Source of the DNA: an uncultured Pseudomonadales bacterium
Lineage (GTDB): Bacteria; Patescibacteriota; Microgenomatia; UBA1400; PJMF01
NCBI GenBank assembly: GCA_964625685.1
Contig: CAZVBO010000002.1
Coordinates: forward strand, 55,440-119,439
Direction of reading: 5' to 3'
DNA: 64,000 nt
How positions within the stretch are numbered: the stretch's first letter is position 1; every line of letters starts with the position of its first letter. The notes under the pieces were generated by a model. It was given only the letters and a program-made list of their open reading frames with translations, was not told where the DNA came from and did no database searches. The translations under genes were made by a program, and so were the position numbers. Below, piece by piece: positions 27,911 through 64,000 of the stretch.

Positions 27911-28090
27911 ACATCCAGATGTTTTCGCTCCCAAGCAACTGAATCTTGTACTGATCCTAGTACAGGAGAAAAACCAAGCGAGCTGAAACAGAGTGGATGT
28001 TTTTTTTTATAAAATTATGAAAAAGTGTAAGCAAAGTATCAATAATAAGAAAAAGGTTTAACTAAACCCCCGTTCGCTGCGGGGGTTTTT
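27911..28090 (+). repeat. Copy 1 of a conserved ~170-180-bp leader element ending in an intrinsic terminator (candidate cis-regulatory RNA)
   Basis: Near-identical to 30756-30926. Contains hairpin CTTGTACT-GATCCT-AGTACAGG, a 9-T run, a mini-ORF (28017-28061, MKKCKQSINNKKKV) and terminator AAACCCCCG-TTCGCT-GCGGGGGTTTTT (28066-28090), 16 nt before the ATG of the next gene. Confidence 0.8.
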
Positions 28091-30755: not shown

Positions 30756-30926
30756 ACATCTCGTTTTCGCTCCCAAGCAACTGAACCCTGTACTTTAGTA
30801 CAGGCGAAAAACCAAGCGAGCTAAAACAGAGTGGATGTTTTTTTTATAAAATTATGAAAAAGTGTAAGCAAAGTATCAATAATAGAAAAAGGTTTAACTA
30901 AACCCCCGTTCGCTGCGGGGGTTTTT
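30756..30926 (+). repeat. Copy 2 of the leader element, between guaA and the GNAT-like gene
   Basis: Same sequence blocks as copy 1 (TTTTCGCTCCCAAGCAACTGAA..., hairpin CCTGTAC-TTTA-GTACAGG, T-run, mini-ORF 30854-30901, identical terminator 30900-30926). About 90% identity, with indels. Confidence 0.8.
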
Positions 30927-36771: not shown

Positions 36772-37482
36772 TTAGACGTGATGAGCCTCGATTAAGAACA
36801 AACCTTTGGCTTGTTGAAAGTGAATTTGTTTGCCTTTTTTCCAAAAGGTGAGTTGAAACTGATGATCTTCTAAAAATTTTTGGAGTTGAGCCAATTTCTG
36901 ACTGGGATGAGTGTGAAACTCAATCATCATAGACTGAATCTGGCTGACTTGGTCATGGAGGGACATCAACACTTTTTGCTCCATGCCTTCAATATCCAGT
37001 TTGAGAAAAATGAAGGGATTTTTGGTTTCTGCTTTAATTTTATTCAGGAAGAAAGACAAAGTTTGAGTAGTGACTGTTATATTTTCAGTTTGCTGTTCGC
37101 CGCTCCAAGCGTGAGGATGCAAACTAGCCGTGCTAAACCAATCAAATTCAGTATCAGCATGAAACTCAGCCTGGCCAGCGGTCTGAGCTAAAGCCACTTG
37201 ATAGGTTTCGACATTGTTCAGATTATTCTCCCAAATATTCTGTTCTAAAAGTTGATAGTTCACTGGGTGAGGTTCAATGGCAATGATCTTGGCCTGGGGA
37301 AACATTTTTTTAAAATAAACAGTAGATAAGCCTATATGTGCCCCAGCATCAATGACCCATAAATTTTCTGATTCAATATTAAGGTCATAGATTCGCTGAA
37401 TAAAGATTTCATTTTTGAGTTCATGAAATTCTTCTTGATTATGGTAGTGAATGGTGAAATTCTGAAGCTTAGTTGTTGGCAT
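36772..37482 (-). CDS. FkbM-family SAM-dependent methyltransferase
   Basis: VIDAGAHIGLSTVYFKKMFPQAKIIAIEPHPVNYQLLEQN matches the FkbM motif I/II layout; convergent with glyA, with zero spacing. Confidence 0.65.
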   Translation of the reverse strand: MPTTKLQNFTIHYHNQEEFHELKNEIFIQRIYDLNIESENLWVIDAGAHIGLSTVYFKKMFPQAKIIAIEPHPVNYQLLEQNIWENNLNNVETYQVALAQTAGQAEFHADTEFDWFSTASLHPHAWSGEQQTENITVTTQTLSFFLNKIKAETKNPFIFLKLDIEGMEQKVLMSLHDQVSQIQSMMIEFHTHPSQKLAQLQKFLEDHQFQLTFWKKGKQIHFQQAKGLFLIEAHHV

Positions 37483-42921: not shown

Positions 42922-43148
42922 CAGCAGTCTTACACTTCTCTTGCTAAAGTGATCCCTTTTTATATAGAGACGCATCTTGTTCCAGATGGATGTTTTTGAT
43001 ATAGTTTTTGCTACATGAGTTCGCTCTGGCAATTAAAAAAGAGACCTAGTCTTTTTACCTAAATGGGTTGAAAGATTGGGTCTTTTTTATCAGTTATTTT
43101 CCTTGACTCTTGCCCAATAGAGCTAAAAGGGAAGTAAGGAGGTTGATA

Positions 43149-49400: not shown

Positions 49401-49570
49401 GGCGGTATAATACCTCCCATATGTCACTCTCAATAGCAATAGAGGGGTAGCTAATAGACATGGGATTCCCTTCGAGTTTACTATCAAGCTTCCCAAACCA
49501 AGAAAAGCACGAAAGATAACAAAGAGGGACGAATTAGGTCGTATAATATGGACGAAAGCTAAATAGTCGA

Positions 49571-49580
49571 CTTATCTACT
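49571..49580 (+). promoter_or_regulatory. Site 1 of the recurring island 10-mer CTTATCTACT (immediately 5' of the ATG at 49582)
   Basis: Exact 10-mer, also present at 52959-52968 and as its reverse complement at 62163-62172. Confidence 0.4.
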
Positions 49581-49581
49581 T

Positions 49582-50334
49582 ATGAATAGGGAAATAATAA
49601 TAAAAAAAATAAAAGCTGTTGGATTTTTCGATTTTACTAATTGGGTTCAAAATAACAAAGAGCTTACAATCGCTCTAATTATTGTTTTTATAATATTTAT
49701 TGATATTTCTAATCTAGACGCTTCTTTTCACAAGGCTTTTTGTTTATCTCTAACAATATTACCAACATCAGTTGTTTGCCCAGATTTTTATGATATTCCT
49801 ATTTGGTCTTTTTTTGAAGTTGCCGGTGTAATAGCGACTGTTGTTGTTGCACTTTGGTCAGTAAATATTGGATTGAAACAAGCGAATAAGCAAGAAAAAA
49901 GTGCACAGGAAATCAAAATGGACCAGGACATGCCAATTATTTTTTTGAATCCTGAACCACAGCCGAAGTTACACAAAAATGGTGAAGTGTGTCTAGAGCT
50001 TATGAATGTTGGTAAGGGGATTGCCAAAGATGTATATGTATATATTGAAGACATTTTGGTTGAAGGAAATTTTTCAATGCTCACCGCCTCACCTGATAAT
50101 TTATCTGAACTAAAGATAAAATTTATTGCTTCTGATTCTTCACCTGAAAGGCAAAAGGCTATAGCACAAAAAATTCAACATTTTTCAGAAAAAAAGGATT
50201 TGCAAATGAAAATTACCTACTCTGACATTCACGGCCGATCATTTGTTACAGATCAAATAATATTTGAAAAAAACCAAGTTGGCGACTACATGCACAACAG
50301 GGGAAAGTGGTCGTTCCGAAAGGTTCAGTCATGA
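49582..50334 (+). CDS. Hypothetical membrane protein (2 N-terminal TM helices plus soluble domain); first gene of the accessory island operon
   Basis: 250 aa; ATGA overlap with the next gene. Confidence 0.45.
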   Translation: MNREIIIKKIKAVGFFDFTNWVQNNKELTIALIIVFIIFIDISNLDASFHKAFCLSLTILPTSVVCPDFYDIPIWSFFEVAGVIATVVVALWSVNIGLKQANKQEKSAQEIKMDQDMPIIFLNPEPQPKLHKNGEVCLELMNVGKGIAKDVYVYIEDILVEGNFSMLTASPDNLSELKIKFIASDSSPERQKAIAQKIQHFSEKKDLQMKITYSDIHGRSFVTDQIIFEKNQVGDYMHNRGKWSFRKVQS

Positions 50335-51095
50335 ACACCTTCCTCCAATTAGCAAAACATATTCTTGAACAAGTTGGTCAACCTCTTCATTACAAAGAAA
50401 TCACTCAAAAAGCCATAGAGCAGGGCCTTCAAACAGAAGGGGCAACTCCTTGGGCCACCATGAATGCTCAAATCGCCACTGACATCAAAAAGAACGGTGA
50501 AGATTCACTCTTTTATCGAAGTGAGCCAGGTTTTTATGGTCTCAATCAAGAAGGTGTGCCTAAAGTGGCTGTTTCAGAAGTAAAGGCCAAGATTACCGGT
50601 GCCTTGCATAAAGTCACCTCTGACCTCAACACTAAGCAAAAAGGCGATATTGCCGAAGCCAGAGTGGCAGAACTGATTACTTTGTATGGTGATGAGGGTC
50701 TTTCTTGTTACCGTCCAATTAGTGATGACGAAGGCATAGATATTATTGTCAAAAAAAGAGGTGATCTCGATGTAGCTTATGTTCAGGTCAAATCAACCTT
50801 TGGCAATGGCTCTGATCGTTTTGTGTGCAGTGTCAAAGAGGACAAAATCGTCAACAAAAGAAGAATGCTGATGGTCTTTGTGTACTTTGATTTGACTGAC
50901 GGTGATATTCATGAGCATGTTTTTTGTGTGCCAGCATCTGAATTTTTGAAGCTCACTCACAATGAAAATAAAAAGCCAGGTCATCGAGTTTTTACGGTCA
51001 GCCTCAATAGTCCAGACAAATCAAAATATGCCAAGTATTTGATCGAAAAAAGAGAATTGGCTAATAAAATTCTTGAAATAATGAATGAAACATAA
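50331..51095 (+). CDS. HARE-HTH (winged-helix) plus PD-(D/E)xK nuclease, Mrr-like restriction-endonuclease-fold protein
   Basis: The N-terminus MNTFLQLAKHILEQVGQPLHYKEITQKAIEQGL...TPWATMNAQI...LFYRSEPGFYGL follows the HARE-HTH pattern (as in the RpoE-delta N-terminus / Mrr_N). The C-terminus GDIAEARVAELITLYGDEG...SDDEGIDIIVKK...VAYVQVKS has D ... E-x-K/Q-x-K catalytic spacing like Mrr-cat. Confidence 0.6.
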   Translation: MNTFLQLAKHILEQVGQPLHYKEITQKAIEQGLQTEGATPWATMNAQIATDIKKNGEDSLFYRSEPGFYGLNQEGVPKVAVSEVKAKITGALHKVTSDLNTKQKGDIAEARVAELITLYGDEGLSCYRPISDDEGIDIIVKKRGDLDVAYVQVKSTFGNGSDRFVCSVKEDKIVNKRRMLMVFVYFDLTDGDIHEHVFCVPASEFLKLTHNENKKPGHRVFTVSLNSPDKSKYAKYLIEKRELANKILEIMNET

Positions 51096-52608
51096 AGCAC
51101 ACCTAACTGCATCTGATTTATACAACTACATTCAGTGTCCTCATCGTGTATGGCGTGATATATACGGTCCTCAACAAGAAAAACTCAAAGAAACAAATCC
51201 ATTTGTAGAAATGCTCTGGGAAAAGGGTGTTCAGCACGAAAAAGAAGTGTTGGGCAGGATGGGGGAGTTAGTTGATTTGGGAAAAGGGGACCAACAAGAG
51301 CGTATCCAAGCTACCAAAAAGGCGATGGATGATGGCGTGGACTTACTTTATCAGCCAGTAATAGTTCATGAAAATCTTTTAGGTATTCCGGACTTTTTGA
51401 AAAAGTTAGATGACGGCACGTATATGGCCGTTGATGTGAAGAGTGGTAGGGGCTTTGAAGGCACAGATGATGATACTTCTGAAAATGGTCCTAAGCTCAA
51501 AAAACACTACGCTGTTCAGTTGGCTTTATATACAGAAATTTTAGAAAAGAACGGATTTAGCAATGGCCACAGACAGGCAATTATTTATGATATTGAACAC
51601 AAAGAAGTGTTATATGAATTGGACCGCCAAATTGGCGTGCGGGACCAAAGAAGCTATTGGCAATATTACCAGTGGCTCAAAGTTGAAGTTTGGAATTTGA
51701 TCTCAAATCAAAAAAGCAATGACCCTGCAATGGCGGGAATTTGCAAACTTTGTCCGTGGTACAACAGTTGCAGTTCGTGGGTCAAAGCTAACGATGACAC
51801 CACTGGCTTATTCTACGTTGGCAGAAGTGTGAGAGACACTTTGAGAAGTGATATTGGTTTGACAACTATTCACGATGCTCAAAACATTGATGTGAATGAT
51901 CTCATGGCAGAGAAGGCTAAGGACAAGCAGTTTTTACAAAGAATTGGAGAGAAAACACTTGAGAAGATCAAGATTAGAGCTGAGATTATGGCTAATAAAT
52001 TGCCACCAGTTCTTTATGATGAATTAGATCTGCCAGATATGGAATATGAGCTTTTCTTTGATATTGAGGATGATCCAACTCAAGCATTTGTTTATTTGCA
52101 TGGTGTCTACGAAAGAACCTCAAAAGGGGAGCGGTTTATTCCATTTGTGGCTTCAAGCGTGACACCAGAAGCAGAGGCTCAAGCTTGGCAAGAGTTTTGG
52201 AATTATATTCGTTCACTGCCACAGGATGATTTTGCCTTGTATTACTATTCTCACCATGAAGAGACAACTTACAAGAAAATGGCTGATCTCTATCCGCACG
52301 TTGCTACAAGAGAAGATGTTGAGTGGCTATATCAAGATTCAAGAGCGATAGATTTGTACAGGGTCATCAGTAAATCAACTGATTGGCCTGTTGGCAGTTA
52401 TTCTCTCAAGAGTATTGCCAAGTATTTAGGTTTCAGTTGGCGTGACAAGACACCATCAGGGGCACTTTCTATCCAGTGGTATAACGGCTATCTAAAAACA
52501 GGTGATCAGGCTATTTTGGAGCGTATTTTGCTCTATAACGAGGATGATTGTATTGCCACTTTGGTGATCAAAGATGCCTTGATGAAAATGGTCCCAACTA
52601 ATTCTTAG
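51085..52608 (+). CDS. RecB-family / Cas4-like PD-(D/E)xK nuclease with Fe-S cysteine cluster, fused to a C-terminal RNase-H-like (YprB-type) domain (COG2251 / TM0106-like)
   Basis: The N-terminus TASDLYNYIQCPHRVWRD is the Cas4/Dna2-type start and CKLCPWYNSC the Cys cluster. The C-terminal half, with LFFDIEDDP (DnaQ-like motif-I DxE), fits the RNase_H_2 fold. Confidence 0.6.
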   Translation: MKHKAHLTASDLYNYIQCPHRVWRDIYGPQQEKLKETNPFVEMLWEKGVQHEKEVLGRMGELVDLGKGDQQERIQATKKAMDDGVDLLYQPVIVHENLLGIPDFLKKLDDGTYMAVDVKSGRGFEGTDDDTSENGPKLKKHYAVQLALYTEILEKNGFSNGHRQAIIYDIEHKEVLYELDRQIGVRDQRSYWQYYQWLKVEVWNLISNQKSNDPAMAGICKLCPWYNSCSSWVKANDDTTGLFYVGRSVRDTLRSDIGLTTIHDAQNIDVNDLMAEKAKDKQFLQRIGEKTLEKIKIRAEIMANKLPPVLYDELDLPDMEYELFFDIEDDPTQAFVYLHGVYERTSKGERFIPFVASSVTPEAEAQAWQEFWNYIRSLPQDDFALYYYSHHEETTYKKMADLYPHVATREDVEWLYQDSRAIDLYRVISKSTDWPVGSYSLKSIAKYLGFSWRDKTPSGALSIQWYNGYLKTGDQAILERILLYNEDDCIATLVIKDALMKMVPTNS

Positions 52609-52644
52609 CTTGCAACTTTTCTACATTTGTCCCTAATATGAAGC

Positions 52645-52917
52645 ATGAGGTTTTTTGTAAATTCCAAGCTTCTAGGTGATGACCTAAAAATTGAAGAGAT
52701 TGAGTCAGCATCTGCTATTGAGAGCGAAGTAGTTTTTCAGTTTGATGGTAAAAAGATTTTCGGTAGGCTTGATTTTGATCAAAGTTCTTTGCCTAGTTTT
52801 ATTGTATTGAATAGTTGCTCAGGGACTGAAAAATATCCAGTCAATCAGATTGAACAGTTTCAGGTCCTTGATGAAGGAATTGCAGATTACTTTGGTCCAC
52901 CTATCTTTACTCAATAA
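52645..52917 (+). CDS. Small hypothetical protein (90 aa)
   Basis: ORF between the nuclease operon and hsdR; no motif. Confidence 0.35.
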   Translation: MRFFVNSKLLGDDLKIEEIESASAIESEVVFQFDGKKIFGRLDFDQSSLPSFIVLNSCSGTEKYPVNQIEQFQVLDEGIADYFGPPIFTQ

Positions 52918-52954
52918 AAAGAGATCATTTTGTGCTACGGCTAGGACCACATTT

Positions 52955-52968
52955 GGTTTATAATCTAC
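52955..52968 (+). promoter_or_regulatory. Site 2 of the island motif: tandem ATCTACT-T-ATCTACT containing CTTATCTACT, next to a TTATAAT -10-like box upstream of hsdR
   Basis: Read directly: TTTATAATCTACTTATCTACTTTTAG, 44 nt before the hsdR ATG. Confidence 0.4.
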
Positions 52969-53011
52969 TTATCTACTTTTAGTAAGAATTCAGTCGAGAG
53001 AACACTGCCTT

Positions 53012-55408
53012 ATGGACAAATCACAACTATCTGAACGAGACATATGTACCAAATTTATTACGCCAGCAGTACAGCAGGCCGGTTGGGACGTTGATTCACA
53101 AATCCGTGAAGAAGTCAGTTTCACAAAGGGTCGCATCATTGTTAGAGATAAGGTGATTGCCAGAGGTAAACCAAAAAGAGCAGATTACATTCTTTACTAT
53201 AAAGAAAATTTTCCAATTGCCTTGATTGAAGCCAAGGACAACAAGCACTCAGTGGGTGATGGCATGCAACAGGGCCTTGAGTATGCTGAAACCTTGGATA
53301 TTCCTTTTGTGTTTAGCTCAAATGGAGATGCTTTCATAGCTCATGACAGAACTGGTATGTCAGCTGATACGGAAAAGCAGATTCGACTAGATGAATTCCC
53401 AAGCCCTCAAGAGCTGTATCAGCGATACTTGCGTTGGAAAAACATTGATATGGTCGAGGAGCAGATTCTGACCACAGACTACTACTATGACGCTCGTGGC
53501 AAATCACCTCGTTATTATCAACAAATTGCCATCAATAGAACTATTGAAGCAGTGGCCAATGATCAAAAGCGAATCATGTTGGTTATGGCCACCGGTACAG
53601 GGAAAACATACACAGCCTTTCAGATTATGTGGCGTTTGTGGAAGTCAGGGGCCAAAAAGAGAATTTTGTTCTTAGCGGACCGCAACATCCTTATTGATCA
53701 AGCAAAGACCAATGATTTCATTCCATTTGGTGACAAAATGACCAAGATCAGTAATCGCCAGATTGATAAGTCATATGAACTCTACCTTTCCTTGTATCAA
53801 GCTGTGACGGGCAATGAGGAAGAAAAGAACATCTACAAACAATTCAGTCCTGATTTCTTTGATTTGATTATTGTGGATGAGTGTCATCGAGGTAGTGCCA
53901 GAGCAGATTCAGCGTGGAGAGAGATTCTTGAATACTTTGACCATGCTACCCAAATCGGTTTGACTGCCACCCCAAAAGAAACAAAAGATGTCTCAAATAT
54001 TGATTACTTTGGTGAGCCGGTTTACACCTATTCACTCAAGCAAGGTATTGAGGATGGCTTTTTGGCACCTTATAAAGTGGTCCGTTACACCATTGATCGT
54101 GATGTTGAAGGCTACCGTCCAGAGCCTCATAAAAGAGATATTTATGGGGAAGAAGTTCCTGATGAGGTGTATTATGGCCATGATTTTGATCGCAAGCTGA
54201 TTATCGATGACCGAACCAAACTGGTAGCTAAGAAAGTAACTGAATACTTAGAAGCTAATGAAGCATTTGCCAAGACAATCGTGTTCTGTATCGACATCGA
54301 ACATGCCGAAAGAATGAGAAGAGCTTTGATCAATGAAAACCAAGAACGCTACCAAGAGAACTCTAAATACATCATGCGAATTACTGGTGACAATGAGCAG
54401 GGAAAAGCAGAATTAGACGGTTTTATTGATCCTGAGAGCAAATATCCAGTCATTGTGACTACTTCTAAGTTATTGACCACAGGTGTTGATGCTCAAACTT
54501 GTAAGTTAGTGGTCCTTGATGCTCCGATCAAATCAATGACCGAGTTCAAACAAATTGTAGGACGTGGTACGAGACTTCGTGAGGATCATGACAAGTTCTA
54601 CTTCACAATTATGGATTTCCGTAATGCTACGGATAACTTTGCAGATCCTGATTTTGATGGCGAGCCAGTGCAAATTTATGAACCAGTTTTGCCAGCAAAA
54701 ATTGAAGGGGTCCAACCCGTCAAAACACAGTCTGTTTCAACCGATGAACTAGATATTTCAGAAGTTTTGTATGATCCACAGCGTGTTGATGCCATGACAC
54801 TGAGAGATTCAGCCGGTGAAGTGGGGTATCGAACTGGTGGAGTTCACAAATACCACCTCAATGATGTAGAAGTGATGGTCTCAAGTGAGAAAATTCAATT
54901 TTATGATGAGGGTGGCAAACTTGTTTCAGAGTCACTGGAAGAGTATTCAGCCAAAAACTTGAAGAGGCTCTATCCTGAGCTAGCCGATTTCCAACGAGCT
55001 TGGGCGGAAGCTGAAAACAAAACGGTCTTGATTCACAGTTTAGTTGAGAATGGCTTTTTTATTGATGAGCTTCTAGAAAAAGTTGATCCCGCATTAGATA
55101 TTTTTGATTTGGTTCTGAGCGTTGCGTATAAGCAAGAAGCAAGCATGACTCGGTCCCAAAGAGCTCAGCAAGTACGAGGAAGTGAATTTTTCAATCAATA
55201 TCAAGATACACAAAAAGAGCTATTGCTTGATCTTTTGAGTGTGTATGAACAAGAAGGTATTGTGGCAATTGAGGACGTTGAATTGCTTAGGGTTGAACCA
55301 TTCACCAAGTATGGATCACCGGTTGAGATACTTGGGACCATTTTTTCTGGAAGAAATGAATATTTATTAGCATTAGCAGATATGAAGAAGCACTTATACA
55401 AAGGTTAG
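53012..55408 (+). CDS. hsdR: Type I restriction enzyme R subunit (endonuclease / SF2 translocase), compact form
   Basis: N-terminal HsdR nuclease domain (SERDICTKFITPAVQQAGW..., PD-(D/E)xK: ADYILY...IALIEAKD); helicase motifs I MATGTGKTYTAF, II VDECHRGS, later motifs (TATP, QIVGRGTRL). 798 aa, so it lacks a long C-terminal helical domain. Confidence 0.88.
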   Translation: MDKSQLSERDICTKFITPAVQQAGWDVDSQIREEVSFTKGRIIVRDKVIARGKPKRADYILYYKENFPIALIEAKDNKHSVGDGMQQGLEYAETLDIPFVFSSNGDAFIAHDRTGMSADTEKQIRLDEFPSPQELYQRYLRWKNIDMVEEQILTTDYYYDARGKSPRYYQQIAINRTIEAVANDQKRIMLVMATGTGKTYTAFQIMWRLWKSGAKKRILFLADRNILIDQAKTNDFIPFGDKMTKISNRQIDKSYELYLSLYQAVTGNEEEKNIYKQFSPDFFDLIIVDECHRGSARADSAWREILEYFDHATQIGLTATPKETKDVSNIDYFGEPVYTYSLKQGIEDGFLAPYKVVRYTIDRDVEGYRPEPHKRDIYGEEVPDEVYYGHDFDRKLIIDDRTKLVAKKVTEYLEANEAFAKTIVFCIDIEHAERMRRALINENQERYQENSKYIMRITGDNEQGKAELDGFIDPESKYPVIVTTSKLLTTGVDAQTCKLVVLDAPIKSMTEFKQIVGRGTRLREDHDKFYFTIMDFRNATDNFADPDFDGEPVQIYEPVLPAKIEGVQPVKTQSVSTDELDISEVLYDPQRVDAMTLRDSAGEVGYRTGGVHKYHLNDVEVMVSSEKIQFYDEGGKLVSESLEEYSAKNLKRLYPELADFQRAWAEAENKTVLIHSLVENGFFIDELLEKVDPALDIFDLVLSVAYKQEASMTRSQRAQQVRGSEFFNQYQDTQKELLLDLLSVYEQEGIVAIEDVELLRVEPFTKYGSPVEILGTIFSGRNEYLLALADMKKHLYKG

Positions 55409-55411
55409 ATT

Positions 55412-56845
55412 ATGGCACTTTCAACAAAGATCAAAACGATTCAAAACATCATGCGTCAAGACAGTGGTGTCGATGGTGATGCTCAGAGAATTTCGCAATT
55501 AGGCTGGTTGATATTCCTCAAGATTTTTGACGATCGTGAGCGAGAGCTTGAGATCATGAAAGGGGATTATGAATCACCAATGCCAGAAGAGTTGAGATGG
55601 CGAAATTGGGCATTGGACGAAGAAGGTATTACTGGTGATGAGTTATTGAACTTTGTAAACAATGACCTTTTCCCTAAGTTGAAGAACCTTGAAGTCAAAT
55701 CTACCGATGATAAAAAGGCACTTATTTTACGGTCCGTGTTTGAAGATGCTTTCAACTACATGAAGTCAGGGACCTTACTTCGTCAGGTAATCAACGAGCT
55801 GAATGATATTGACTTTGCTAGTTCAAATGACAGACATGTATTCAATGATGTGTATGAAAAAATCCTCAAGGACTTGCAGAGTGCCGGAAATGCCGGTGAG
55901 TTTTACACCCCTCGTGCAGTTACTCAATTTATTGTGGACATGGTGGATCCAAAGCTTGGCGAAAAAGTATTTGACCCCGCTTGTGGTACCGGTGGTTTTT
56001 TGACATCGGTAATTGAGCATGTTCGCAAGAATGAAGTCAAAACGGGTGAAGACAACGAAGCTTTGGCAAATTCAATATATGCAGTAGAAAAGAAACCACT
56101 GCCTCATTTGCTTTGTACAACCAATATGATTCTTCATGGTATTGATGATCCAAGCAATATTGTCAGAGGTAATTCATTGGTTCGTCCTTTGCGTGATTAC
56201 ACCGAAGATGATAGGGTCCATGTGATCGTGACTAATCCACCGTTTGGTGGGACCGAAGAAGATGGAATTGAACTTGGCTTTCCAAAGAAGTTCCAAACAA
56301 GGGAAACTGCTGATTTGTTTTTGGTCCTGATTATTCATTTACTCAAAGAGAATGGTCGAGTGGGTATAGTTTTGCCAGATGGTTCTTTATCTGGTGAAGG
56401 TGTCAAACAGAGAATCAGAGAGCATTTGCTCAATAAATGTAATTTACACACGATTATTCGTTTGCCAAACAGCGTCTTCAAGCCATATGCCACTGTTAGT
56501 ACTAATTTATTGTTTTTCTCAAAGGGTGAGCCAACCAAAGAAGTTTGGTATTACGAGCACCAACTTCCAGACGGATACAAAAGCTATTCAAAGACAAAAC
56601 CAATTCAACTAAGTGAATTTGATGTTATCAAAAAATGGTGGAGCAACAGAGAAGAAGGTCCTTTTTCATGGAAGGTTGGCATCAAAGATATTGAAGAAAA
56701 AGGTTTCAACTTAGATATCAAGAATCCAAATATCAAACGAAAGAAAATTGAACAATCACCAGAAGAAATCATTTCAGAGATTCGAGAGAATCAGAGTCAA
56801 ATTGATCAATTGTTGAGTGAGATTGAGGAACTAATCAAATCATGA
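55412..56845 (+). CDS. hsdM: Type I restriction-modification N6-adenine DNA methyltransferase subunit
   Basis: HsdM N-terminal domain (LGWLIFLKIFDDRE), SAM motif I DPACGTGGFL, catalytic NPPFGG (VTNPPFGGTEE). Confidence 0.9.
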   Translation: MALSTKIKTIQNIMRQDSGVDGDAQRISQLGWLIFLKIFDDRERELEIMKGDYESPMPEELRWRNWALDEEGITGDELLNFVNNDLFPKLKNLEVKSTDDKKALILRSVFEDAFNYMKSGTLLRQVINELNDIDFASSNDRHVFNDVYEKILKDLQSAGNAGEFYTPRAVTQFIVDMVDPKLGEKVFDPACGTGGFLTSVIEHVRKNEVKTGEDNEALANSIYAVEKKPLPHLLCTTNMILHGIDDPSNIVRGNSLVRPLRDYTEDDRVHVIVTNPPFGGTEEDGIELGFPKKFQTRETADLFLVLIIHLLKENGRVGIVLPDGSLSGEGVKQRIREHLLNKCNLHTIIRLPNSVFKPYATVSTNLLFFSKGEPTKEVWYYEHQLPDGYKSYSKTKPIQLSEFDVIKKWWSNREEGPFSWKVGIKDIEEKGFNLDIKNPNIKRKKIEQSPEEIISEIRENQSQIDQLLSEIEELIKS

Positions 56846-58032
56846 GCTATACATTAGATGAACTATGCCATATAGAAAAAGGCAAAATTGGCATTACAAA
56901 AGCCGTTGATGGTGAATATCCATTAGTTACCACTGGTGAAGATTTTGGAACACACAATGAATACCATTTTGAAGGTCCTGCTGTATGTGTGCCACTAGTT
57001 TCTTCAACTGGCCACGGACACGCTAGCATCAAGAGATTGCACTATATTGAAGGAAAGTTTGCTTGTGGAAATATTTTGGCAGTACTGATTCCAAAGGATC
57101 CAAGTAAGTTGTCAGCGAAGTTTTTATACACCTATCTTACTGTTCACAAACAGGAAAAATTGGTGAGAAAAATGAAGGGGGCGGCTAATGTATCTTTGAC
57201 TTTGACAAATTTGAAAAAAGTGAAAATTGAGGACTTGCCTTCGCTGAAAGAACAGGAAAAAATATCTAGCATTTATTCGTCTATTGATAAATTTTCTTTG
57301 GAATTTTTAAAAAAAATTGAATTCAACAAAACAAGAACTAGTACTCTAAAAAATAAGGTTATTGATTTGGCTGTGTTTGGCCATTTTTTACCATATTCAA
57401 ATAATGATTATTCATTTTCAGATGATTTTGATCACTTAGTTCCAAACAAGTGGTCATTTTCTAGCTTAGAGGATATAGCAGAATTCATTGATTATAGAGG
57501 CAAGACTCCAAAAAAAGTTGATACTGGTATTAGGTTGGTCACTGCTAAAAATGTAAAGCTCGGATATTTTTCATATGAGCCAGCAGAATATATGGAATCT
57601 CATGCTTATGATGATTGGATGACAAGAGGGTTTCCTCAAAAGAATGATGTTTTATTTACCACAGAGGCCCCATTAGCTAATACATGTTTATACCCGTTTG
57701 AGCACACAGAGAAAATTGCTTTAGCACAGAGAATCATTACATTGCACCCATATAATGATAGTGATTATATAAAAAGCAGATATTTGTTTTATTGCTTATT
57801 AGCACCTTCAATAAGAAGAAAAATTCAGGCAAAAGCAACTGGTACGGCCGCTTTAGGAATTAGATCTAGTAGGCTAAAAAAAATTATTTTTCCAGTACCT
57901 TCTCAAGATGAGATGCTGAAAATTGTGAATTTTTTGGAAGTTTTCTTTGAGTTCATTGAACAAATTGGATCAAAGGTTTCAGACAATGAAGAAATCATCG
58001 ATAAACTAAAAAATCAATCTTACAAAGGATAG
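56842..58032 (+). CDS. hsdS: Type I R-M specificity subunit with two target-recognition domains
   Basis: Central conserved repeat LKKVKIEDLPSLKEQEKISSIYSSIDKF and C-terminal IIFPVPSQDEMLKIVNFLEVFFEFIEQI flank two variable TRDs; 4-nt overlap with hsdM. Confidence 0.85.
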   Translation: MSYTLDELCHIEKGKIGITKAVDGEYPLVTTGEDFGTHNEYHFEGPAVCVPLVSSTGHGHASIKRLHYIEGKFACGNILAVLIPKDPSKLSAKFLYTYLTVHKQEKLVRKMKGAANVSLTLTNLKKVKIEDLPSLKEQEKISSIYSSIDKFSLEFLKKIEFNKTRTSTLKNKVIDLAVFGHFLPYSNNDYSFSDDFDHLVPNKWSFSSLEDIAEFIDYRGKTPKKVDTGIRLVTAKNVKLGYFSYEPAEYMESHAYDDWMTRGFPQKNDVLFTTEAPLANTCLYPFEHTEKIALAQRIITLHPYNDSDYIKSRYLFYCLLAPSIRRKIQAKATGTAALGIRSSRLKKIIFPVPSQDEMLKIVNFLEVFFEFIEQIGSKVSDNEEIIDKLKNQSYKG

Positions 58033-58040
58033 TGACATAA

Positions 58041-61010
58041 ATGAAATCTGATTACTTCACCCCTGACGGCTATCTATCAGCTCAAAAAGTTCGAGATGTG
58101 CTCAAGAACGTTGAGTATGAGGGTAAAAAATTATCAGAGGAAAAGGTGGGGGACATAGTTGAACAATTTTGGTTTCAGGATTACTACTCCAATTTTATTT
58201 GTATCCCAGACGTTTTTGAGTTCCTTCAAGAGTATTTAGAAGAGTATGGGCCAGAAGTAAAGAGAATCGATTTCTATCGATACCACTTTTCAAAGGTTGT
58301 TACTGACGATAAAAAAAAGTCCAGCTTAGAGCTAATCTCTGTTGATTTTGAAACAAAGCAACGCAATGACATAAATCAAGACCTTTTGCAGGAAGTTCTT
58401 GATAAACATGAGATCACTAATATTTCATTTGAGTGGTTACTTGAGAAGAAGTTCATTTGGCAAATAGAAGATAAATTTGAATGGCGTCACCACACATATA
58501 CTGAGTTCTTTGCTTCTGAATACATCCTCAAGCAAAAAGAGCCGATCAAAGTTGTTGATGAGTTAGCAGTTTTGAATGTTGAAGCTGACAACTCAAAAAA
58601 CATCAAGCCTTCGTGGCATGGTGTGATCAAGTTTTTACTTCAAAGCGAAATTTCCCATGATGCGTTGAACTGGCTTATTGGATTGATCAAAGAAAACCCA
58701 CTCAATTTGAGTGAAGATCTGACAAACATCATCAGCATGTTTGCTCCTCACGATTTAGATGATTCTGAAAAATCAGAGGTTTTCAATATTATTTATGACA
58801 CCTATCAAGAAAGAATGGTTTGGTTACCGGTCTGGGCAAGAACAGGGTTGGCTAAGTTTTTTACAACCACACAGTTAGAGAAATTTGAAAAGCACTTAGA
58901 AGCTACTGATGATGAGGTCGAAACATATGTCCATCGTGGCAACGTGGTGGCAGTAGTGGGTGAATTGATTGAGATAGGAATTATTAGTGATAAAAAACAA
59001 ATTGGCTTATGGAAGGATAGATTTGTTGAGTACGCCTTGGATGAAAATGATAATGGGGTACTGCAAAGGCACAGTCTTCATGCTCTTAGGCAGTTCAAAG
59101 AAAAAGATGGCCAACTGATCCTCAAGCTAAGAAAAAACCTGAATTCGTCAGATACTTTGGTTCGAGATGCATTTATTCAGTACTGCTCAGAGTCGGCCCC
59201 AAATACAAAAGAGGCAATAGACGTTTTTGCTGATGCATATGGCGAAGGAATGTCTCGTGTGTATAGCAGACACGGTATGTATGAAATTTCTTCATTGGAA
59301 GGCTTCACATATCTAATCGACAAACTAATAGACAATAGCAATTTCTTACATGAGTTTATTGATTCTGAATCAATCTTTGATGGTGAAAGAAAAGATCCCG
59401 ATGCAGAGTTTGTTCAAAAGATTATTGACTCGGCGAGGTCAAATACAGGTTTTGCTAAAAAGTTGAGCGATCTATTGAAGGAGGTCATAAAGAATGACGA
59501 AATATACCAGGTAGAACGTTCATATTTTGTTAGAAATATTAGTTTATTTCTTTTTGATGACCGCGACAGAGGTATTGAGTTTATCAAAGACGTAATTAGT
59601 GAAGAAGACATTACAAGGCATTTTGTTCATAACTTTTTTGACATACTTCCGGAAGTTTTGACGTCTGAGAATTGGCAAGAAATATTTGAAATTTTAGAAG
59701 CAACGGATATTGAATATGTTGATCGCCACCTTGAGAGAGTTTCGTATGGTCTTAGGTTTAGAAAAGAAGCTGGTGGTAAAGAACTATTTGAAGAGATTGC
59801 CCAAAAAAGAGGGTATAAGATCGAGAAACCAAGAGATTATGAGAAAGAAGAGAAAAAGAGGCAGGATGAGCTCTACAAAGAATTCAAATTCAAGATAGAA
59901 CCTGACAAGGGTCGGTTCATGGGAGATGTCTTTGAATATTACCTCAATAATGCAGAGGTTATTGAAGAGAGATGGTCTGATTATGAAGAAGAGCGAATGC
60001 TGTTCTTGGCTTACGAAGATGGTATCAAGAGGTTAGACCCAAGAGATTTTAGAGTCACATTTGAAGAGAAGAAAAAACGAGGAGGACGTTTTAGGTGGTC
60101 CAGTCAGGCCGCTTTTTATGGCGAAATGATCAAGGTTGTTCAGCGGATGAGACCTGATTTACTGGAAGAACCAGCTGTAAGACAACACATTATCGATTTC
60201 ACTCCGTATTGCTATTCTGATGACTACAAAGTGGTCCATGAGCTAATTACTGAGATTGAACCAAGTGATATTAGTTGGCTCGTTGAGCTCTACAAAAATG
60301 AAGATGATGATCGCCGGTATTTGGTCCCTGAATCATTTATTTATTTTCTTGAGAGCTTATTGGACCACAAACAAAATGTCACTAGTGCCATTCCAACACT
60401 TAGAACATTTATTCTTGATGAAAACATCTCGGATTGGGTAAGTCGAAGTGCTTTGGAGTTGCTAGGCAAAATTGAAGCATCAAGTAAGGATTACCAAGAT
60501 TTTCTTCAAGAGGTATTTGAAAAAACTGAATACGACAAAGTAAAAGAGGAAGCAAATAGGCAATTGATTGTTTTATTTGAAGAAGAAGAAGCGATTCAAT
60601 GGAGATTTGAGCAAATCAAAGCAAAAGTTTCTCCATTCAAGAGAGAAGAAGGTGTTCACTCGGTTGGTGAACTGGAAAGTGAGCTTGATTCAAGATCATT
60701 TATATCACCTCTTTGTGAGGTAAAGACAGAAAAAATACTCAAAGATTTTTTGAAGCTTTTTGAATATGTATTAGTTAAGTATGAAACGGATGAGGGATAT
60801 TCTGCCTACCTTGAATATGTTTGGGCAGCAATTATTAGATTTGTTTATAAATTTGACGAAGAACAGTTCTTTGACTTATACGCTAGATTGAAAAAATATG
60901 TTGAGGAGTCAGAGATTTCTAGTAAGAAGAGGCCTTACCTTGAGTATTCATTGCAGAAAACCAAAACAGATTTTATAAATAAAATGGCACTTGAAGGGAG
61001 AAATGAGTAG
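58041..61010 (+). CDS. Large (989 aa) all-alpha / HEAT-like repeat protein of unknown function, tightly coupled downstream of hsdS
   Basis: No Walker A/B. Possible N-terminal PD-(D/E)xK-like strand motifs (CIPD ... ISVDFETK). Segment FEWRHHTYTEFFASEYIL resembles the F-x-H-x-S/T-x-x-E-F-L-A-A winged-helix signature that follows STAND NTPase cores. PBS-lyase/HEAT-like repeats (e.g. VLQRHSLHALRQF, DWVSRSALELLGKI). Confidence 0.55.
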   Translation: MKSDYFTPDGYLSAQKVRDVLKNVEYEGKKLSEEKVGDIVEQFWFQDYYSNFICIPDVFEFLQEYLEEYGPEVKRIDFYRYHFSKVVTDDKKKSSLELISVDFETKQRNDINQDLLQEVLDKHEITNISFEWLLEKKFIWQIEDKFEWRHHTYTEFFASEYILKQKEPIKVVDELAVLNVEADNSKNIKPSWHGVIKFLLQSEISHDALNWLIGLIKENPLNLSEDLTNIISMFAPHDLDDSEKSEVFNIIYDTYQERMVWLPVWARTGLAKFFTTTQLEKFEKHLEATDDEVETYVHRGNVVAVVGELIEIGIISDKKQIGLWKDRFVEYALDENDNGVLQRHSLHALRQFKEKDGQLILKLRKNLNSSDTLVRDAFIQYCSESAPNTKEAIDVFADAYGEGMSRVYSRHGMYEISSLEGFTYLIDKLIDNSNFLHEFIDSESIFDGERKDPDAEFVQKIIDSARSNTGFAKKLSDLLKEVIKNDEIYQVERSYFVRNISLFLFDDRDRGIEFIKDVISEEDITRHFVHNFFDILPEVLTSENWQEIFEILEATDIEYVDRHLERVSYGLRFRKEAGGKELFEEIAQKRGYKIEKPRDYEKEEKKRQDELYKEFKFKIEPDKGRFMGDVFEYYLNNAEVIEERWSDYEEERMLFLAYEDGIKRLDPRDFRVTFEEKKKRGGRFRWSSQAAFYGEMIKVVQRMRPDLLEEPAVRQHIIDFTPYCYSDDYKVVHELITEIEPSDISWLVELYKNEDDDRRYLVPESFIYFLESLLDHKQNVTSAIPTLRTFILDENISDWVSRSALELLGKIEASSKDYQDFLQEVFEKTEYDKVKEEANRQLIVLFEEEEAIQWRFEQIKAKVSPFKREEGVHSVGELESELDSRSFISPLCEVKTEKILKDFLKLFEYVLVKYETDEGYSAYLEYVWAAIIRFVYKFDEEQFFDLYARLKKYVEESEISSKKRPYLEYSLQKTKTDFINKMALEGRNE

Positions 61011-61833
61011 TTCTTCCTTACCAATCCATGATGATTTTTCAAACAATCCTTTTGGTTTGCCTGATCCACCGACACCTAGGATTCCAACTGATCCATTAGA
61101 AAAAATTATCTATGCCTTTGAAGCTTGTCGTGGTGGAATACAACAAAGTCAGTTTCCTAATTACTCAGTAGATTCAATAATATGGTGTTTCAGGGCATTT
61201 GAATTGGTAAACAAGCTCAATGGGGAAGTGACTCAAAATGGTAAGAATCAGATTGAGAAATGGAAAAAACAGAAAAATATAGATTCAATGGATCAGGTGA
61301 CGGCCCTTTTTATAAGGAAGAAAGCAGAATTACCTGAATTTGAACTCGAAATAGAAAATCACTTTGATAACAAACATGTATATGTTGATTACTTTAGACA
61401 TACTTCACCGACTGATAAACTCCATTGGTTGAATTTTCTAATATATTTGGGATTTATAGACAATTCTGACTATAAACTCATTGATGTGTGTGACAGAAAT
61501 GGAAAAAGATATAAGTGGACTGAATCAGGTAAACTTTTTATTACAAAAATTAGAGAAGCAATTTCTCCAAAGGAAATCTTTTCAGATGGAGTAATCACTG
61601 AAGAACTAAACTGGCACGAAAAGACAAGAAAGTTTTTGTCAAAGATTCCCAAGTGGTTTTGGTCAATTCCTATCTTGATGATTCTACTAATTTTGCTTTT
61701 TTTTGCCAAACATTGGCTTCCCGTATTTTGTCCGATTGTAACTAAAGACAAAAGTACTTATCAGGTATTCAAATCGATAGAAATTGGACCTATCAATGGT
61801 TCTGAATTATGTGAGCCAATTCCGGAAAACTAG
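60991..61833 (+). CDS. Hypothetical protein with a single C-terminal TM anchor (280 aa), overlapping the 989-aa gene by 20 nt
   Basis: Soluble N-terminal domain then KWFWSIPILMILLILLFFAKHWL TM helix; translationally coupled to the upstream gene. Confidence 0.45.
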   Translation: MKGEMSSSSLPIHDDFSNNPFGLPDPPTPRIPTDPLEKIIYAFEACRGGIQQSQFPNYSVDSIIWCFRAFELVNKLNGEVTQNGKNQIEKWKKQKNIDSMDQVTALFIRKKAELPEFELEIENHFDNKHVYVDYFRHTSPTDKLHWLNFLIYLGFIDNSDYKLIDVCDRNGKRYKWTESGKLFITKIREAISPKEIFSDGVITEELNWHEKTRKFLSKIPKWFWSIPILMILLILLFFAKHWLPVFCPIVTKDKSTYQVFKSIEIGPINGSELCEPIPEN

Positions 61834-62120
61834 AGTAATTCAAGAATCTTATCTGCAACTTCCTCACCATCATTCCATTTCAGTTTGATTTTGTGAGTTT
61901 TACCGCCCGTTGTTTCAATCAAAACCCATTTGAAACCCTTGATATTGAAAGGGTTGATCTTTGAACTGCCGTCAGCGTTGGTAGAGGTGATGACGTTGGC
62001 GATTTGTTTTGTTGGAATGGAGATTTTATTGAAGCTGAGCTTTTTTCCGATAACCACTTTTGCAGGGTAGATCTCAATCCAATCAAGGACTAATTGTTTC
62101 TTTAGTAGTTTATTTTCCAT
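61830..62120 (-). CDS. Small hypothetical protein (96 aa), reverse strand
   Basis: ORF with reasonable codon usage; convergent with the 280-aa gene (4-nt overlap). Confidence 0.35.
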   Translation of the reverse strand: MENKLLKKQLVLDWIEIYPAKVVIGKKLSFNKISIPTKQIANVITSTNADGSSKINPFNIKGFKWVLIETTGGKTHKIKLKWNDGEEVADKILELL

Positions 62121-62162
62121 AGTAGGTTGCTTTCTATATTGCTTTGAATTATAGATCTAAAA

Positions 62163-62178
62163 AGTAGATAAGTCTACT
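62163..62178 (+). promoter_or_regulatory. Site 3 of the island motif: inverted repeat AGTAGA-TAAG-TCTACT (contains the reverse complement of CTTATCTACT) in the promoter of the XRE-HTH gene
   Basis: Read directly, 40 nt upstream of the ATG at 62218; lies between divergent genes. Confidence 0.45.
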
Positions 62179-62217
62179 AATAGTGCGTTTATCTTTAGTG
62201 CGTAAGGGTCTGTAATC

Positions 62218-62448
62218 GTGGATATGCTAAGCAAATCCCGTTTCACTCAAATCGTAGGTCAAAATATTCGAAAAGTTCGTTTAGATAAGGGGATGACTCA
62301 AGATGAGCTTTCTCACGAATGTGGGTTTTACAGAACCTATATCAACTTAGTTGAAACTGCTCACAGGACCCCATCTTCATTCACTTTGTTCAAAATAGCA
62401 AAGGCTCTAAAGGTCTCGGTTGATGACCTTTATCCAACCACGGTTTAG
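62218..62448 (+). CDS. XRE-family (Cro/C1-type) helix-turn-helix transcriptional regulator
   Basis: QNIRKVRLDKGMTQDELSHECGFYRTYINLVETAHRTPSSFTLFKIAKALKVSVDDLY is a canonical HTH_3/XRE domain; 76 aa. Confidence 0.8.
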   Translation: MDMLSKSRFTQIVGQNIRKVRLDKGMTQDELSHECGFYRTYINLVETAHRTPSSFTLFKIAKALKVSVDDLYPTTV

Positions 62449-62606: not shown

Positions 62607-63380
62607 ATGAATCAGAAAAGTGACAAGTGGATTTCGAATCCAACCACAAAATATGATGAGCTAATACTCGGTGATGATGAAGCGATATCAAAGTACTCCT
62701 ATTCATTGTGTGCGGTCTTAGTTAGACTTGGATCATTTCAATATGAGTTGAAAAAGTTTAGAGAAAGCTTGGGTATAAACAAAATCTACGAATTGCCCAA
62801 GAATTTTCGTTATAAAGAACTCGGATATTGGCTAGATAGCCTAGATTTAGATTATTCAAGGCTACTTGAAGCAGGCGATTTTATTTGTTTTTTGTACAGA
62901 TTGCCCAATGACTGGCAAATGTCATTTATGTGTGCAATTGTTGCAGATTTTTTACCAATTCCAATCGAATTGCCGGCCATTGAGATATATAAGCCAAATA
63001 ACTACTTATCACTTGCCAAAAATAATTTTCCAACTTCTTTGTCGAGATATCCAGCACTTATCATCAAGAAAAATATCTCACCGACAAAGATGAGGACTTG
63101 GATCCTAGAAAATAGCAATCAAGTAAGAGATGCAACTAATCCTCTTTATGACGAGAACCTGATACGGAATGAAGAGAAAACCATCATTTGGGGGGCAATT
63201 GCGAGTCAAGTTTTTATAGATTATCCCAAAATAGATCGAGAATTTGTAGATAAGTGCGAGAAGCTAGCGAAAGATATAAACATTGATTTGGGGCTTCCGG
63301 GTACTAATGAAATTTTCAACCATAAAGAGCGATTTGAAGAAGCCATAGCTAAGTCAGATTTCCTCAAGCACAGTAGTTAG
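62607..63380 (+). CDS. Hypothetical protein (257 aa)
   Basis: ORF in the island downstream of the XRE regulator; no motif recognised. Confidence 0.4.
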   Translation: MNQKSDKWISNPTTKYDELILGDDEAISKYSYSLCAVLVRLGSFQYELKKFRESLGINKIYELPKNFRYKELGYWLDSLDLDYSRLLEAGDFICFLYRLPNDWQMSFMCAIVADFLPIPIELPAIEIYKPNNYLSLAKNNFPTSLSRYPALIIKKNISPTKMRTWILENSNQVRDATNPLYDENLIRNEEKTIIWGAIASQVFIDYPKIDREFVDKCEKLAKDINIDLGLPGTNEIFNHKERFEEAIAKSDFLKHSS

Positions 63381-63842
63381 ACTAGTTGCCGTTTTTATCA
63401 AAAAAGTTTTTTTCACCATAATCATGCTCAATGAGAGATATAGAACTTCTCTACGAGCAAAGCACAGAAATGACACCAGAAGACTTGGATGTCATTTTTG
63501 ACATGCTTTTTGAGATGGTTTGGGAATCTCTTCAAAAAAAGTCGGCAGAAGCATAGCCCTTGTGTTGAATAGACGACTCAAAATAGCTATTCAGAGGTAA
63601 GGGACTCGATGGCAAGACACCTATACTAGATGACTGTATTTTGACTGACAAGGTTTGGTAAGCACTGATAAAACCCTTTGACCATGACAAGAATCATGGG
63701 GGTGGCACACAAGACTGTTAGAACACACGCACAAATACATCTAGGCAGGATGAGGAGTCCAGAAGAGGGAAATACAACTAGGGGGCCGAAGGCCCTAAGA
63801 GAAAAGTCGACTAGTAAATAGTAATAAAAAAAGAAAGGAAAG

Positions 63843-64000
63843 TATGAAATATCATACAGTTGTACCTTATTTGAAAAATGAGGATAAAACATTCCAGTTG
63901 CGTCTGCATATTGGGTGGAGGTCTTTTTTGCTTGAACAAAGAGCCCTAACTGGGAAAAAAATGAAAGATATTGTTGAAGAATTATTAGTTGATCACTTCA
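63843..64000 (+). CDS. Hypothetical protein, 5' partial (continues beyond the window)
   Basis: ATG at 63843 preceded by AAAGGAAAG RBS; open to the end of the window (MKYHTVVPYLKNEDKTFQLRLHIGW...). Confidence 0.35.

Follow-up and report, generated by a model that had tools for sequence, protein, structure and literature searches.

In a 64,000-nt stretch of contig CAZVBO010000002.1 from an uncultured bacterium of the Patescibacteriota (hereafter the window), we analyzed a mobile island that carries a Type I restriction-modification (R-M) system, hsdRMS, and a gene for a small XRE-type helix-turn-helix (HTH) regulator. The regulator resembles the controller (C) proteins. C proteins are textbook timers of Type II restriction systems. 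How Type I systems are controlled at the transcriptional level has begun to emerge only recently, with RptR in 2025. Upstream of the regulator gene lies a double operator, O1 and O2, that is conserved throughout its family, and a short box repeated at three island promoters contains the left half-site of O1. At the promoter of hsdR, this half-site is completed to a dyad that matches operators of the family. We propose that the box is a lineage-specific element and that the C-like regulator represses hsdRMS through the completed dyad, a reading that we judge to be evenly balanced between right and wrong. If true, C-type control would reach Type I restriction, and the regulator would pass from host to host along with its sites.

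A box shared by three island promoters

An earlier note on this DNA described a 10-mer, CTTATCTACT, at three exact sites and suggested that it is the shared operator of the XRE regulator. We found four exact matches in the window, at 49571-49580 (+), 52968-52977 (+), 62163-62172 (-) and 37321-37330 (-). The three intergenic copies are thus real, but they are not the only ones. The fourth copy lies outside the island, within an FkbM-type methyltransferase open reading frame (ORF; 36772-37482, -), its flanks differ from those of the others, and it is probably there by chance. The second copy had been placed at 52959-52968, 9 nt from its actual position; the distance of 44 nt given for it fits the hsdR start codon at 53012 when counted from 52968. 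The intergenic copies share an exact 12-mer, ACTTATCTACTT, which occurs nowhere else in the window. Promoter boxes and transcription starts are, here and below, those predicted from the DNA letters.

Positions 49570-49581, + strand: site 1, 12-mer ACTTATCTACTT, in the predicted 5' untranslated region and directly abutting the ATG at 49582; half-site only
Positions 52967-52978, + strand: site 2, 12-mer ACTTATCTACTT, spanning the predicted hsdR transcription start
Positions 62162-62173, - strand: site 3, 12-mer ACTTATCTACTT, part of the predicted -35 box and spacer of the promoter of a 96-amino acid (aa) gene

Each copy points toward its downstream gene (a 250-aa gene, hsdR and the minus-strand 96-aa gene, respectively), with 0, 33 and 41 nt between the 12-mer and the start codon. 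Sites 1 and 3 have a leftward extension in common, AGTMGACTTATCTACTT, and sites 2 and 3 a rightward one, ACTTATCTACTTTT(T)AG. At site 1, a single base (T, 49581) separates the 10-mer from the ATG, and it is the 12-mer that truly adjoins it, much as the earlier note described. The tandem ATCTACT-T-ATCTACT reported near hsdR is also present: it follows the TATAAT at 52959-52964, and its other ATCTACT unit (52963-52969) lies 8 bp upstream of the one in the 12-mer. Likewise, the inverted repeat AGTAGA-TAAG-TCTACT reported upstream of the XRE gene occupies 62163-62178 and is formed by site 3 together with the left half of O1.

The earlier note put the chance expectation of its 10-mer at about 0.1. 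A value of 0.09 is correct for a 10-mer specified in advance, but this motif was picked after the sequence had been read. In the whole window, 19 different 12-mers occurred at least three times, compared with a mean of 11 in order-3 Markov simulations, so that triple occurrence alone is unremarkable in such AT-rich DNA; we discarded whole-window recurrence as a test of significance, as many AT-rich 12-mers recur. We corrected for the choice of motif within the 5.8 kb of intergenic DNA only, considering 12-mers with at least three G/C, and the simulated probability that any of them occurs three times was P = 0.007. Recurrence by chance is unlikely after this correction (P ~0.007), though the evidence is far weaker than an expectation of 0.1 implies.

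We also examined the shifted 10-mer ACTTATCTAC, which has four exact matches in the window, all within the island. The fourth (63246-63255, -) lies inside a 257-aa ORF, in a stretch that is not conserved in sister islands, and is probably non-functional. In ~620 kb of related genomes, ACTTATCTAC was found only twice outside copies of this island, and both occurrences were in coding DNA. This near-absence led us to reject a general promoter element of the host clade, and the common AT-rich promoter consensus that the earlier note had named as a possible refutation did not appear in those ~620 kb. Within the window, the 12-mer box is confined to, and over-represented in, the regulatory regions of the island (three promoters, P 0.007).

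A C-protein homologue with a conserved double operator

The regulator gene lies near the right end of the window.

Positions 62224-62448, + strand: XRE-type, C-protein-like regulator of 74 aa (Pfam HTH_3), the same length as its homologues

Because the homologues begin with MLSK, the ATG at 62224 is the most likely start; the GTG at 62218, which the earlier note used to obtain a 76-aa product, is less likely. A profile of the family had C.BclI (1.5e-15), C.AhdI (3e-12) and C.Esp1396I (4e-12) among its top matches in the PDB, with far weaker similarity to the phage repressors 434 and P22, and PADLOC returned Control_protein as the best match of the protein (1e-12). These matches identify the protein, at the level of sequence similarity, as a homologue of C proteins, in agreement with the link to R-M controllers that the earlier note had drawn. 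Within the window, it is the only recognisable sequence-specific regulator of the island. Exact-sequence look-ups yielded no record for the XRE protein or for a PspC protein, and viral contigs contained only one distant relative.

We gathered homologous XRE loci from genomes and metagenomes and obtained 43 distinct loci (given as L numbers). Those with a name were mostly Patescibacteria-type metagenome-assembled genomes; many loci carry serine recombinases or prophage genes, and some XRE homologues adjoin terminase or ParB-methylase genes. Type I genes are found nearby in only 4 of the ~43 lineages. Unlike genes of the C.PvuII type, the XRE gene is neither upstream of nor co-transcribed with a restriction endonuclease gene: the gene downstream of it is the variable 257-aa ORF (at other XRE loci the neighbouring gene is convergent), and the only R-M system of the island, 6.8 kb upstream, is of Type I rather than Type II and forms an operon of its own. 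Many predicted C homologues are likewise not located upstream of a restriction endonuclease gene (PMC2632904).

The regions upstream of the 43 XRE genes gave a gap-free core alignment with a common 35-bp block, in which AAWTCTACTAATAGTGCG (O1) is immediately followed by TTGYACTATTGTGCG (O2). The block begins 52-56 nt before the ATG (60 nt in one misregistered locus) and ends 17-21 nt before it, and O1 carries much more information than O2. In the window, the block and the promoter that it would serve are arranged as follows.

Positions 62173-62187, + strand: O1, distal C-box-like operator TCTACTAATAGTGCG, centred at about -44 of the predicted XRE promoter and overlapping the divergent -35 box
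Positions 62188-62202, + strand: O2, proximal operator TTTATCTTTAGTGCG, overlapping the predicted -35 box (TTTATC) of the XRE promoter; from family alignments and a position weight matrix (PWM) scan
Positions 62211-62216, + strand: predicted -10 box TGTAAT of the XRE gene, 7 nt before the ATG

A PWM of O1 trained with the window left out gave 62170-62187 the highest score (22.6 bits) among 128,000 window positions. In 38 of the 43 homologues, a -10-like hexamer has its end 5-9 nt ahead of the ATG, and any Shine-Dalgarno-like tetramer was present in only 6 of 43, suggesting that the XRE mRNA is probably leaderless. This arrangement matches the published C.PvuII-like layout, in which two palindromes, better conserved at the distal position, fill 35 bp about 18 nt from the start codon, the transcript is leaderless and the locus often resides in a mobile element (PMC2632904). 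The double operator of ~35 bp with the better copy in the distal position is thus that of C proteins, while its consensus differs from GACTnnnAGTC. On these sequence features, we assign the regulator and its O1/O2 block, as a new member, to a C-protein-like family that had been predicted to occur commonly in mobile elements. The operators conserved at the XRE gene are O1 and O2 (62173-62202), which lie immediately beside the 10-mer that the earlier note had put forward for this role; the 10-mer has only the half-site TCTACT in common with O1.

A search for k-mers from upstream of other XRE genes that recur in the same element gave only noise, except in L013. There, the whole O1-O2 block is duplicated in tandem (8994-9037 and 9946-9989). 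The first copy, ~950 bp upstream of the XRE gene, is flanked by a minus-strand gene on each side and not obviously followed by an XRE gene of its own. Downstream of the XRE gene in L013 come a small MerR/excisionase-like gene and hsdR.

A predicted family-type operator at the hsdR promoter

Within the 12-mer is TTATCTACT, the left half-site of O1 together with a flank that also occurs in L056 and other family members. At hsdR, TCTACT is followed at the correct spacing by a right half, which yields the full dyad ATCTACTTTTAGTAA.

Positions 52959-52964, + strand: predicted -10 box TATAAT of the hsdR operon
Positions 52971-52985, + strand: predicted XRE-family operator dyad ATCTACTTTTAGTAA, core TACT-TTT-AGTA, over the hsdR transcription start

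The dyad scored 14.4 bits with an O1 PWM trained on 41 non-window operators and was the third-best non-self match in the window, the two better ones being in coding DNA. Given TCTACT, its right half ranked third among the 46 TCTACT sites of the window, with a background probability of ~0.004. All 15 nt of the dyad are identical to O2 of the homologous locus L018, in reverse orientation; outside the XRE promoter, no part of the window matches any of the 42 other operator blocks of the family exactly over a longer stretch. The centre of the dyad lies ~7 nt downstream of the start expected from the TATAAT, and a dyad centred at about +7 would occupy a repressing position. These findings suggest that the XRE regulator probably represses the Type I restriction operon. 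Predicted binding is well supported at only this one of the three 12-mer copies, so that the shared operator proposed by the earlier note survives at hsdR, where the dyad is complete, and not at sites 1 and 3, which carry half-sites only.

Taken with the O1/O2 block, the dyad allows a working model. At low regulator levels, occupancy of O1 would activate the probably leaderless regulator gene itself and, by covering the -35 box of the divergent 96-aa promoter, would shut that promoter off. At higher levels, occupancy of O2 would lead to auto-repression. Binding to the hsdR dyad would damp the Type I operon once the island has become established, comparable to the action of C.Esp1396I at its operator OM.

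A second stretch of the window also resembles family operators. AAATCTACGAATTG, at 62782-62795 in the 257-aa ORF, is identical over 14 nt to the left part of O1 of L009, the second-longest such match in the window; either chance or an operator inside the gene could account for it.

Sites 1 and 3 lie at the promoters of the first island gene and of the 96-aa gene.

Positions 49542-49547, + strand: predicted -10 box TATAAT of the first island gene (250 aa)
Positions 62148-62176, - strand: predicted promoter of the 96-aa gene, with -35 TAGACT (62176-62171), a 17-nt spacer and -10 TATAAT (62153-62148)

Site 1 is conserved in L029-L036. The promoter TAGACT-17-TATAAT of the 96-aa gene is a joint-best sigma-70-like match in 49-64 kb (10/12). 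The third copy, which had been attributed to the XRE promoter, is oriented toward this divergent gene and overlaps its -35 box and spacer. Sites 1 and 3 may be weak auxiliary sites or traces of copying between island promoters. Around the -10 box of the first island gene we also noted a direct repeat, GGACGAA, twice with 23 nt in between (49527-49556); it is probably non-functional because both copies are mutated in L036.

Operators and conservation in related islands

We next consider the related loci. L008 is an island of the same layout, with hsdR 69% and XRE 74% identical to those of the window. Just upstream of its hsdR promoter lies TAGCACGATAGTGCGAA (2179-2195), the best O2-type match of the locus at 18-19.5 bits, and a second palindrome, TATCACTATAGTGATA (13485-13502), precedes a small ORF that is followed by a serine recombinase gene. 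In L019, the palindrome TCGCACAACTGTGCGA (6572-6589) abuts the start of a recombinase gene, and in L024 a family-type operator (4016-4032) lies over the -35 box of a ThiF-family gene. The extra operators of these three loci are YAC-N4-GTR palindromes away from the XRE gene. Among non-self PWM matches of at least 13 bits, 19 of 32 were intergenic, compared with about a tenth of the sequence (10.6% in the window). The pattern suggests that regulators of this family may control integration or excision and cargo genes in several elements. A wider scheme, in which the C-protein homologue runs an island-wide regulon and represses hsdRMS, the left-end operon and the divergent gene through a 12-17-bp box, we put forward only tentatively and consider somewhat unlikely; it would be the first case of C-protein-type control of a Type I restriction system, and one that travels with its island between hosts.

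The regions that bear the box are better conserved than the genes around them. The promoter cassette of the first gene (49513-49581) is 92.9% identical to that of L036, with flanking genes at 66-76% and 11 of the 12 motif bases kept, and 99.3% identical to that of L033, with flanking genes at 90.7%. Compared with L001 and L007, the region upstream of hsdR (52918-53011) is 98.9% identical (flanking genes 85-94%) and the region between the XRE and 96-aa genes (62121-62223) is 100% identical (flanking genes 92-98%). These values support regulatory constraint on the whole motif-bearing regions and do not single out the 12-mer.

Counter-evidence and alternative explanations

Several observations weigh against repression of hsdRMS through a shared, regulator-bound box. 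The 10-mer itself lies outside the operator that the family conserves. Site 1 and the minus-strand reading of site 3 carry the TCTACT half only, with no second half at a suitable spacing; site 1 is absent from the top 20 O1 PWM matches in the window; and the half-sites of the inverted repeat at site 3 face outward, which is the opposite of CTACT-AAT-AGTRS in O1 and does not fit its geometry. Apart from L008, L019 and L024, the ~40 related loci have no second operator within +/-10 kb. The evidence from conservation comes mostly from island copies that are 92-97% identical overall. Finally, identity over 12 nt exceeds what a half-site needs, which points to recent copying, a different mode of recognition or a different protein. 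Under the model with a regulator-bound dyad at hsdR, the 12-nt identity would most likely reflect copying of an operator-containing sequence between island promoters.

This excess of identity is one reason to consider another binder, which would recognise short direct repeats (ACTT-N4-ACTT, with WATCTACTT twice at hsdR). Candidates would be a 61-aa protein encoded just upstream of the recombinase gene or a host factor, in an arrangement like that of RptR (PMC12255303), which serves as a precedent. All three sites fit A-[RTMKACTT]-A-[TCTACTT], a direct rather than an inverted repeat, and the beta-strand-like TFQLRL of the 61-aa protein is identical in the window, L001 and L007 (by eye in the window). 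Such repressors usually autoregulate, yet the region upstream of the 61-aa gene contains no motif copy. Moreover, a ribbon-helix-helix fold of this protein is suggested by its sequence pattern only and has no PDB match, and we identified no protein like RptR; the acidic product of the 90-aa ORF upstream of hsdR had no matches. Nor would a different binder account for the 15-nt identity of site 2 to an XRE operator of the family. We consider this alternative quite improbable.

A simpler possibility is that the repeat has no function of its own and arose as a by-product of promoter copying or recombination, or partly by chance, so that only O1/O2 and possibly the hsdR dyad would be functional. 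Consistent with this, triple 12-mers are common in the window (19 observed, ~11 simulated), the copy at 63246 lies in a variable coding region, and the position of the motif relative to the -10 box differs at all three sites. The near-copy ACTTTTCTAC at 52615, which we rejected as a further promoter site, is conserved in neither L001 nor L007. The island is also mosaic, with breaks in homology directly after site 1 and within hsdS. On the other hand, the intergenic-only probability of 0.007, the orientation of all three copies with their downstream genes, and the higher conservation of the intergenic regions than of their flanking genes, most clearly in the L036 cassette, weigh against a by-product. 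We regard this explanation as unlikely.

The location of sites 1 and 2 at the 5' end or in the leader of the mRNA raises the question of a motif acting at the RNA level, as a translation signal in place of a Shine-Dalgarno sequence or as an antisense target. Site 1 abuts its ATG with no visible Shine-Dalgarno sequence, site 2 is at the predicted +1, and several island genes seem leaderless or nearly so. However, site 3 lies in a -35 box and spacer and would not be transcribed in the sense orientation, and the distance to the start codon varies among the three copies. We rejected a structured RNA, as 47-64 kb contained no Rfam match at E <= 1. An RNA-level role is very improbable.

Two further candidates were rejected. 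The box is not an attachment site of the recombinase: the left junction of the island is ~135 nt upstream of site 1, the flanking repeat is a duplication of the ychF 5' end, and no motif copy lies near the recombinase end in L001. A recognition site of the Type I enzyme, which would make the promoters methylation-sensitive, is disfavoured, as the second half of hsdS differs from that of L001/L007 and the motif is identical.

Comparison with known regulators

Returning to the C-like regulator, we compared the system with described ones. C.PvuII, C.AhdI, C.Esp1396I and C.BclI are likewise small XRE-type HTH proteins with a 35-bp block of two dyads, the proximal one over the -35 box (Sorokin et al. 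2009, PMC2632904; Bogdanova et al. 2009, PMC2691842). The gap of 17-21 nt to the start codon, the probably leaderless mRNA and the location on a mobile element are also as in C.PvuII-type systems. C.Esp1396I represses the promoter of its M gene through a single third operator, OM (PMC2691842), and an extra single operator is predicted here at a second promoter, that of hsdR. C.EcoRV at its distal site interferes with a divergent promoter (PMC2691842); in the island, too, the distal site overlaps a divergent promoter. Besides its gene context, the system differs from the C.PvuII type in its half-site, which is YAC / (T)CTACT and not GACT...AGTC, in the unequal spacing of its dyads (N5 and N4), and in its family, most of whose associations are with serine-recombinase elements of Patescibacteria-type genomes. 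No counterpart has been described for the additional 12-mer box at three promoters.

RptR represses a defence island of E. coli with a Type I R-M system and DarTG (Zhang et al. 2025, PMC12255303). It acts through 9-bp direct repeats that cover the -10 box (PMC12255303). The two systems have in common a small island-encoded regulator, a Type I R-M promoter, and short repeated boxes at or next to the -10 box. Unlike the XRE protein, RptR has a different fold, is encoded first in its operon and binds the palindrome TAGCTA in its 9-bp direct repeats. Searches with the small island ORFs gave no match and thus no RptR homologue, and 52880-53011 upstream of hsdR contained no TAGCTA repeats.

Repressors of the CI/Cro type (lambda PRM/PR, 434, and ImmR of ICEBs1) share divergent promoters with tandem operators and an integrative element with a recombinase, and lambda cI transcribed from PRM has a leaderless mRNA, as is probable here. 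In contrast to these, the XRE gene has no Cro-like partner, and the divergent genes are unrelated across the XRE family.

A C-type operator at a Type I hsdR promoter, predicted in two island lineages (the window and L008), is together with the repeated box a new combination. If the hsdR box works as an operator, C-type control would also cover Type I restriction and the mobile defence islands found in the candidate phyla radiation, a little-studied group. If it is not bound, what remains is an ordinary autoregulated XRE gene beside a repeated promoter fragment. The family operator, with 43 loci and a probably leaderless architecture, offers a concrete and cheap test set.

The integrative island

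The earlier note treated 49.6-63.4 kb as one co-acquired unit. The island is indeed a co-acquired mobile unit, but it begins at ~49.43 kb and passes the end of the window. Judged by its sequence matches, 49.43 kb to the window end is the left 14.6 kb of an integrative island. The segment 49427-49587 is 97.5% identical to L033/L034/L035 (blastn), and the window from 49427 onward is 92-97% identical to these loci. In L034, an island copy whose locus includes cysS, cysS is only 69% identical to that of the window. An island identity of ~92% beside a cysS identity of 69% indicates horizontal transfer of a mobile unit.

Positions 49420-49440: left junction of the island, where homology to other copies begins (~49427-49437)
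From the ATG at 49582, + strand: 250-aa gene, first of the island, for a membrane-like protein
Positions 50307-52608: left-end gene pair, encoding a HARE-HTH + PD-(D/E)XK protein and a 507-aa Cas4-like PD-(D/E)XK + RNase_H_2 protein
Positions 53012-58032, + strand: Type I R-M operon, with hsdR 53012-55408, hsdM 55412-56845 and hsdS 56842-58032
Positions 61830-62120, - strand: 96-aa gene from the ORF list, function unassigned, 96-99% conserved in L001/L007

In the related copies L001/L007, the full island is ~16.5 kb long and ends on the right with a small ORF, a large serine recombinase gene and then ychF. The recombinase gene next to ychF in L001 (11932-13560) encodes Resolvase and Recombinase domains. 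The left end of L033 (4480-4510) is an imperfect direct repeat of the ychF 5' end at the right end of L001 (ATGTCAAGCAACCACCTATCAGTCGCAAT compared with ATGTCAAGTTCAAAACTATCAGTCGGAAT). In these features the island corresponds to an integrative element of the large-serine-recombinase type, with its right end beyond the window.

The cargo, by sequence, is the Type I R-M system plus variable defence-like genes. Pfam matches were ResIII/HSDR_N/EcoEI_R_C for hsdR, N6_Mtase/HsdM_N for hsdM and Methylase_S for hsdS. The left-end pair varies little among island copies (95-98% identity) and may form a defence module not yet characterised; it is followed by a 90-aa ORF, hsdR, hsdM, hsdS, a gene for a 989-aa HEAT-repeat protein and a 280-aa ORF. 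Next come the 96-aa gene on the minus strand, the XRE gene and the 257-aa ORF. Between hsdS and the 96-aa gene, the cargo is swapped: the HEAT-repeat protein and 280-aa ORF of the window are replaced by a KAP NTPase in L001. The 257-aa ORF, which had no family match, has ~48% protein identity in L001/L007, and its 3' part gives no DNA alignment. The 96-aa protein matched neither Pfam nor the PDB, and PDB searches with the 90-aa, 96-aa and 61-aa island proteins yielded nothing usable.

Other sequence features

Two small island ORFs appear, from their upstream sequences, to have little or no leader. One of them, the 90-aa ORF before hsdR, is preceded by TTGCAA-18-TAATAT (52609-52647), with its ATG 6 nt after the -10 box, and an acidic 41-aa ORF (MRDIELLYEQ..., 63431-63556) is preceded by TTATCA-16-CATAAT (region 63395-63433), which ends 8 nt before the ATG. 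The 61-aa ORF just upstream of the recombinase gene spans 63844-64000, where it runs off the window, and 11627-11812 in L001. Its pattern is TFQLRL...WRSFLLEQRA...MKDIVEELLVDHF, a tandem repeat of TAGTAAATAGTAAT lies upstream, and its product may be a ribbon-helix-helix regulator of excision or of the recombinase. Between the 41-aa ORF and the 61-aa gene, a G+C-rich stretch (63700-63830) without a convincing ORF contains the hairpin GGGGGCCGAAGGCCC; it had no Rfam match and may be a terminator or an RNA of no known family.

Outside the island, an intergenic element of ~130 nt occurs in two copies (27934-28064 and 30772-30900). Its sequence, ...CAACTGAA.C.TGTAC...GTACAGG.GAAAAACCAAGCGAGCT.AAACAGAGTGGATGTTTTTTTT.ATAAAATTATGAAAAAGTGTAAGCAAAGTATCAATAAT..., consists of a stem followed by a T-run, and a third TGGATGTTTTT is found at 42987. 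The element could be a terminator-plus-promoter cassette or a small RNA.

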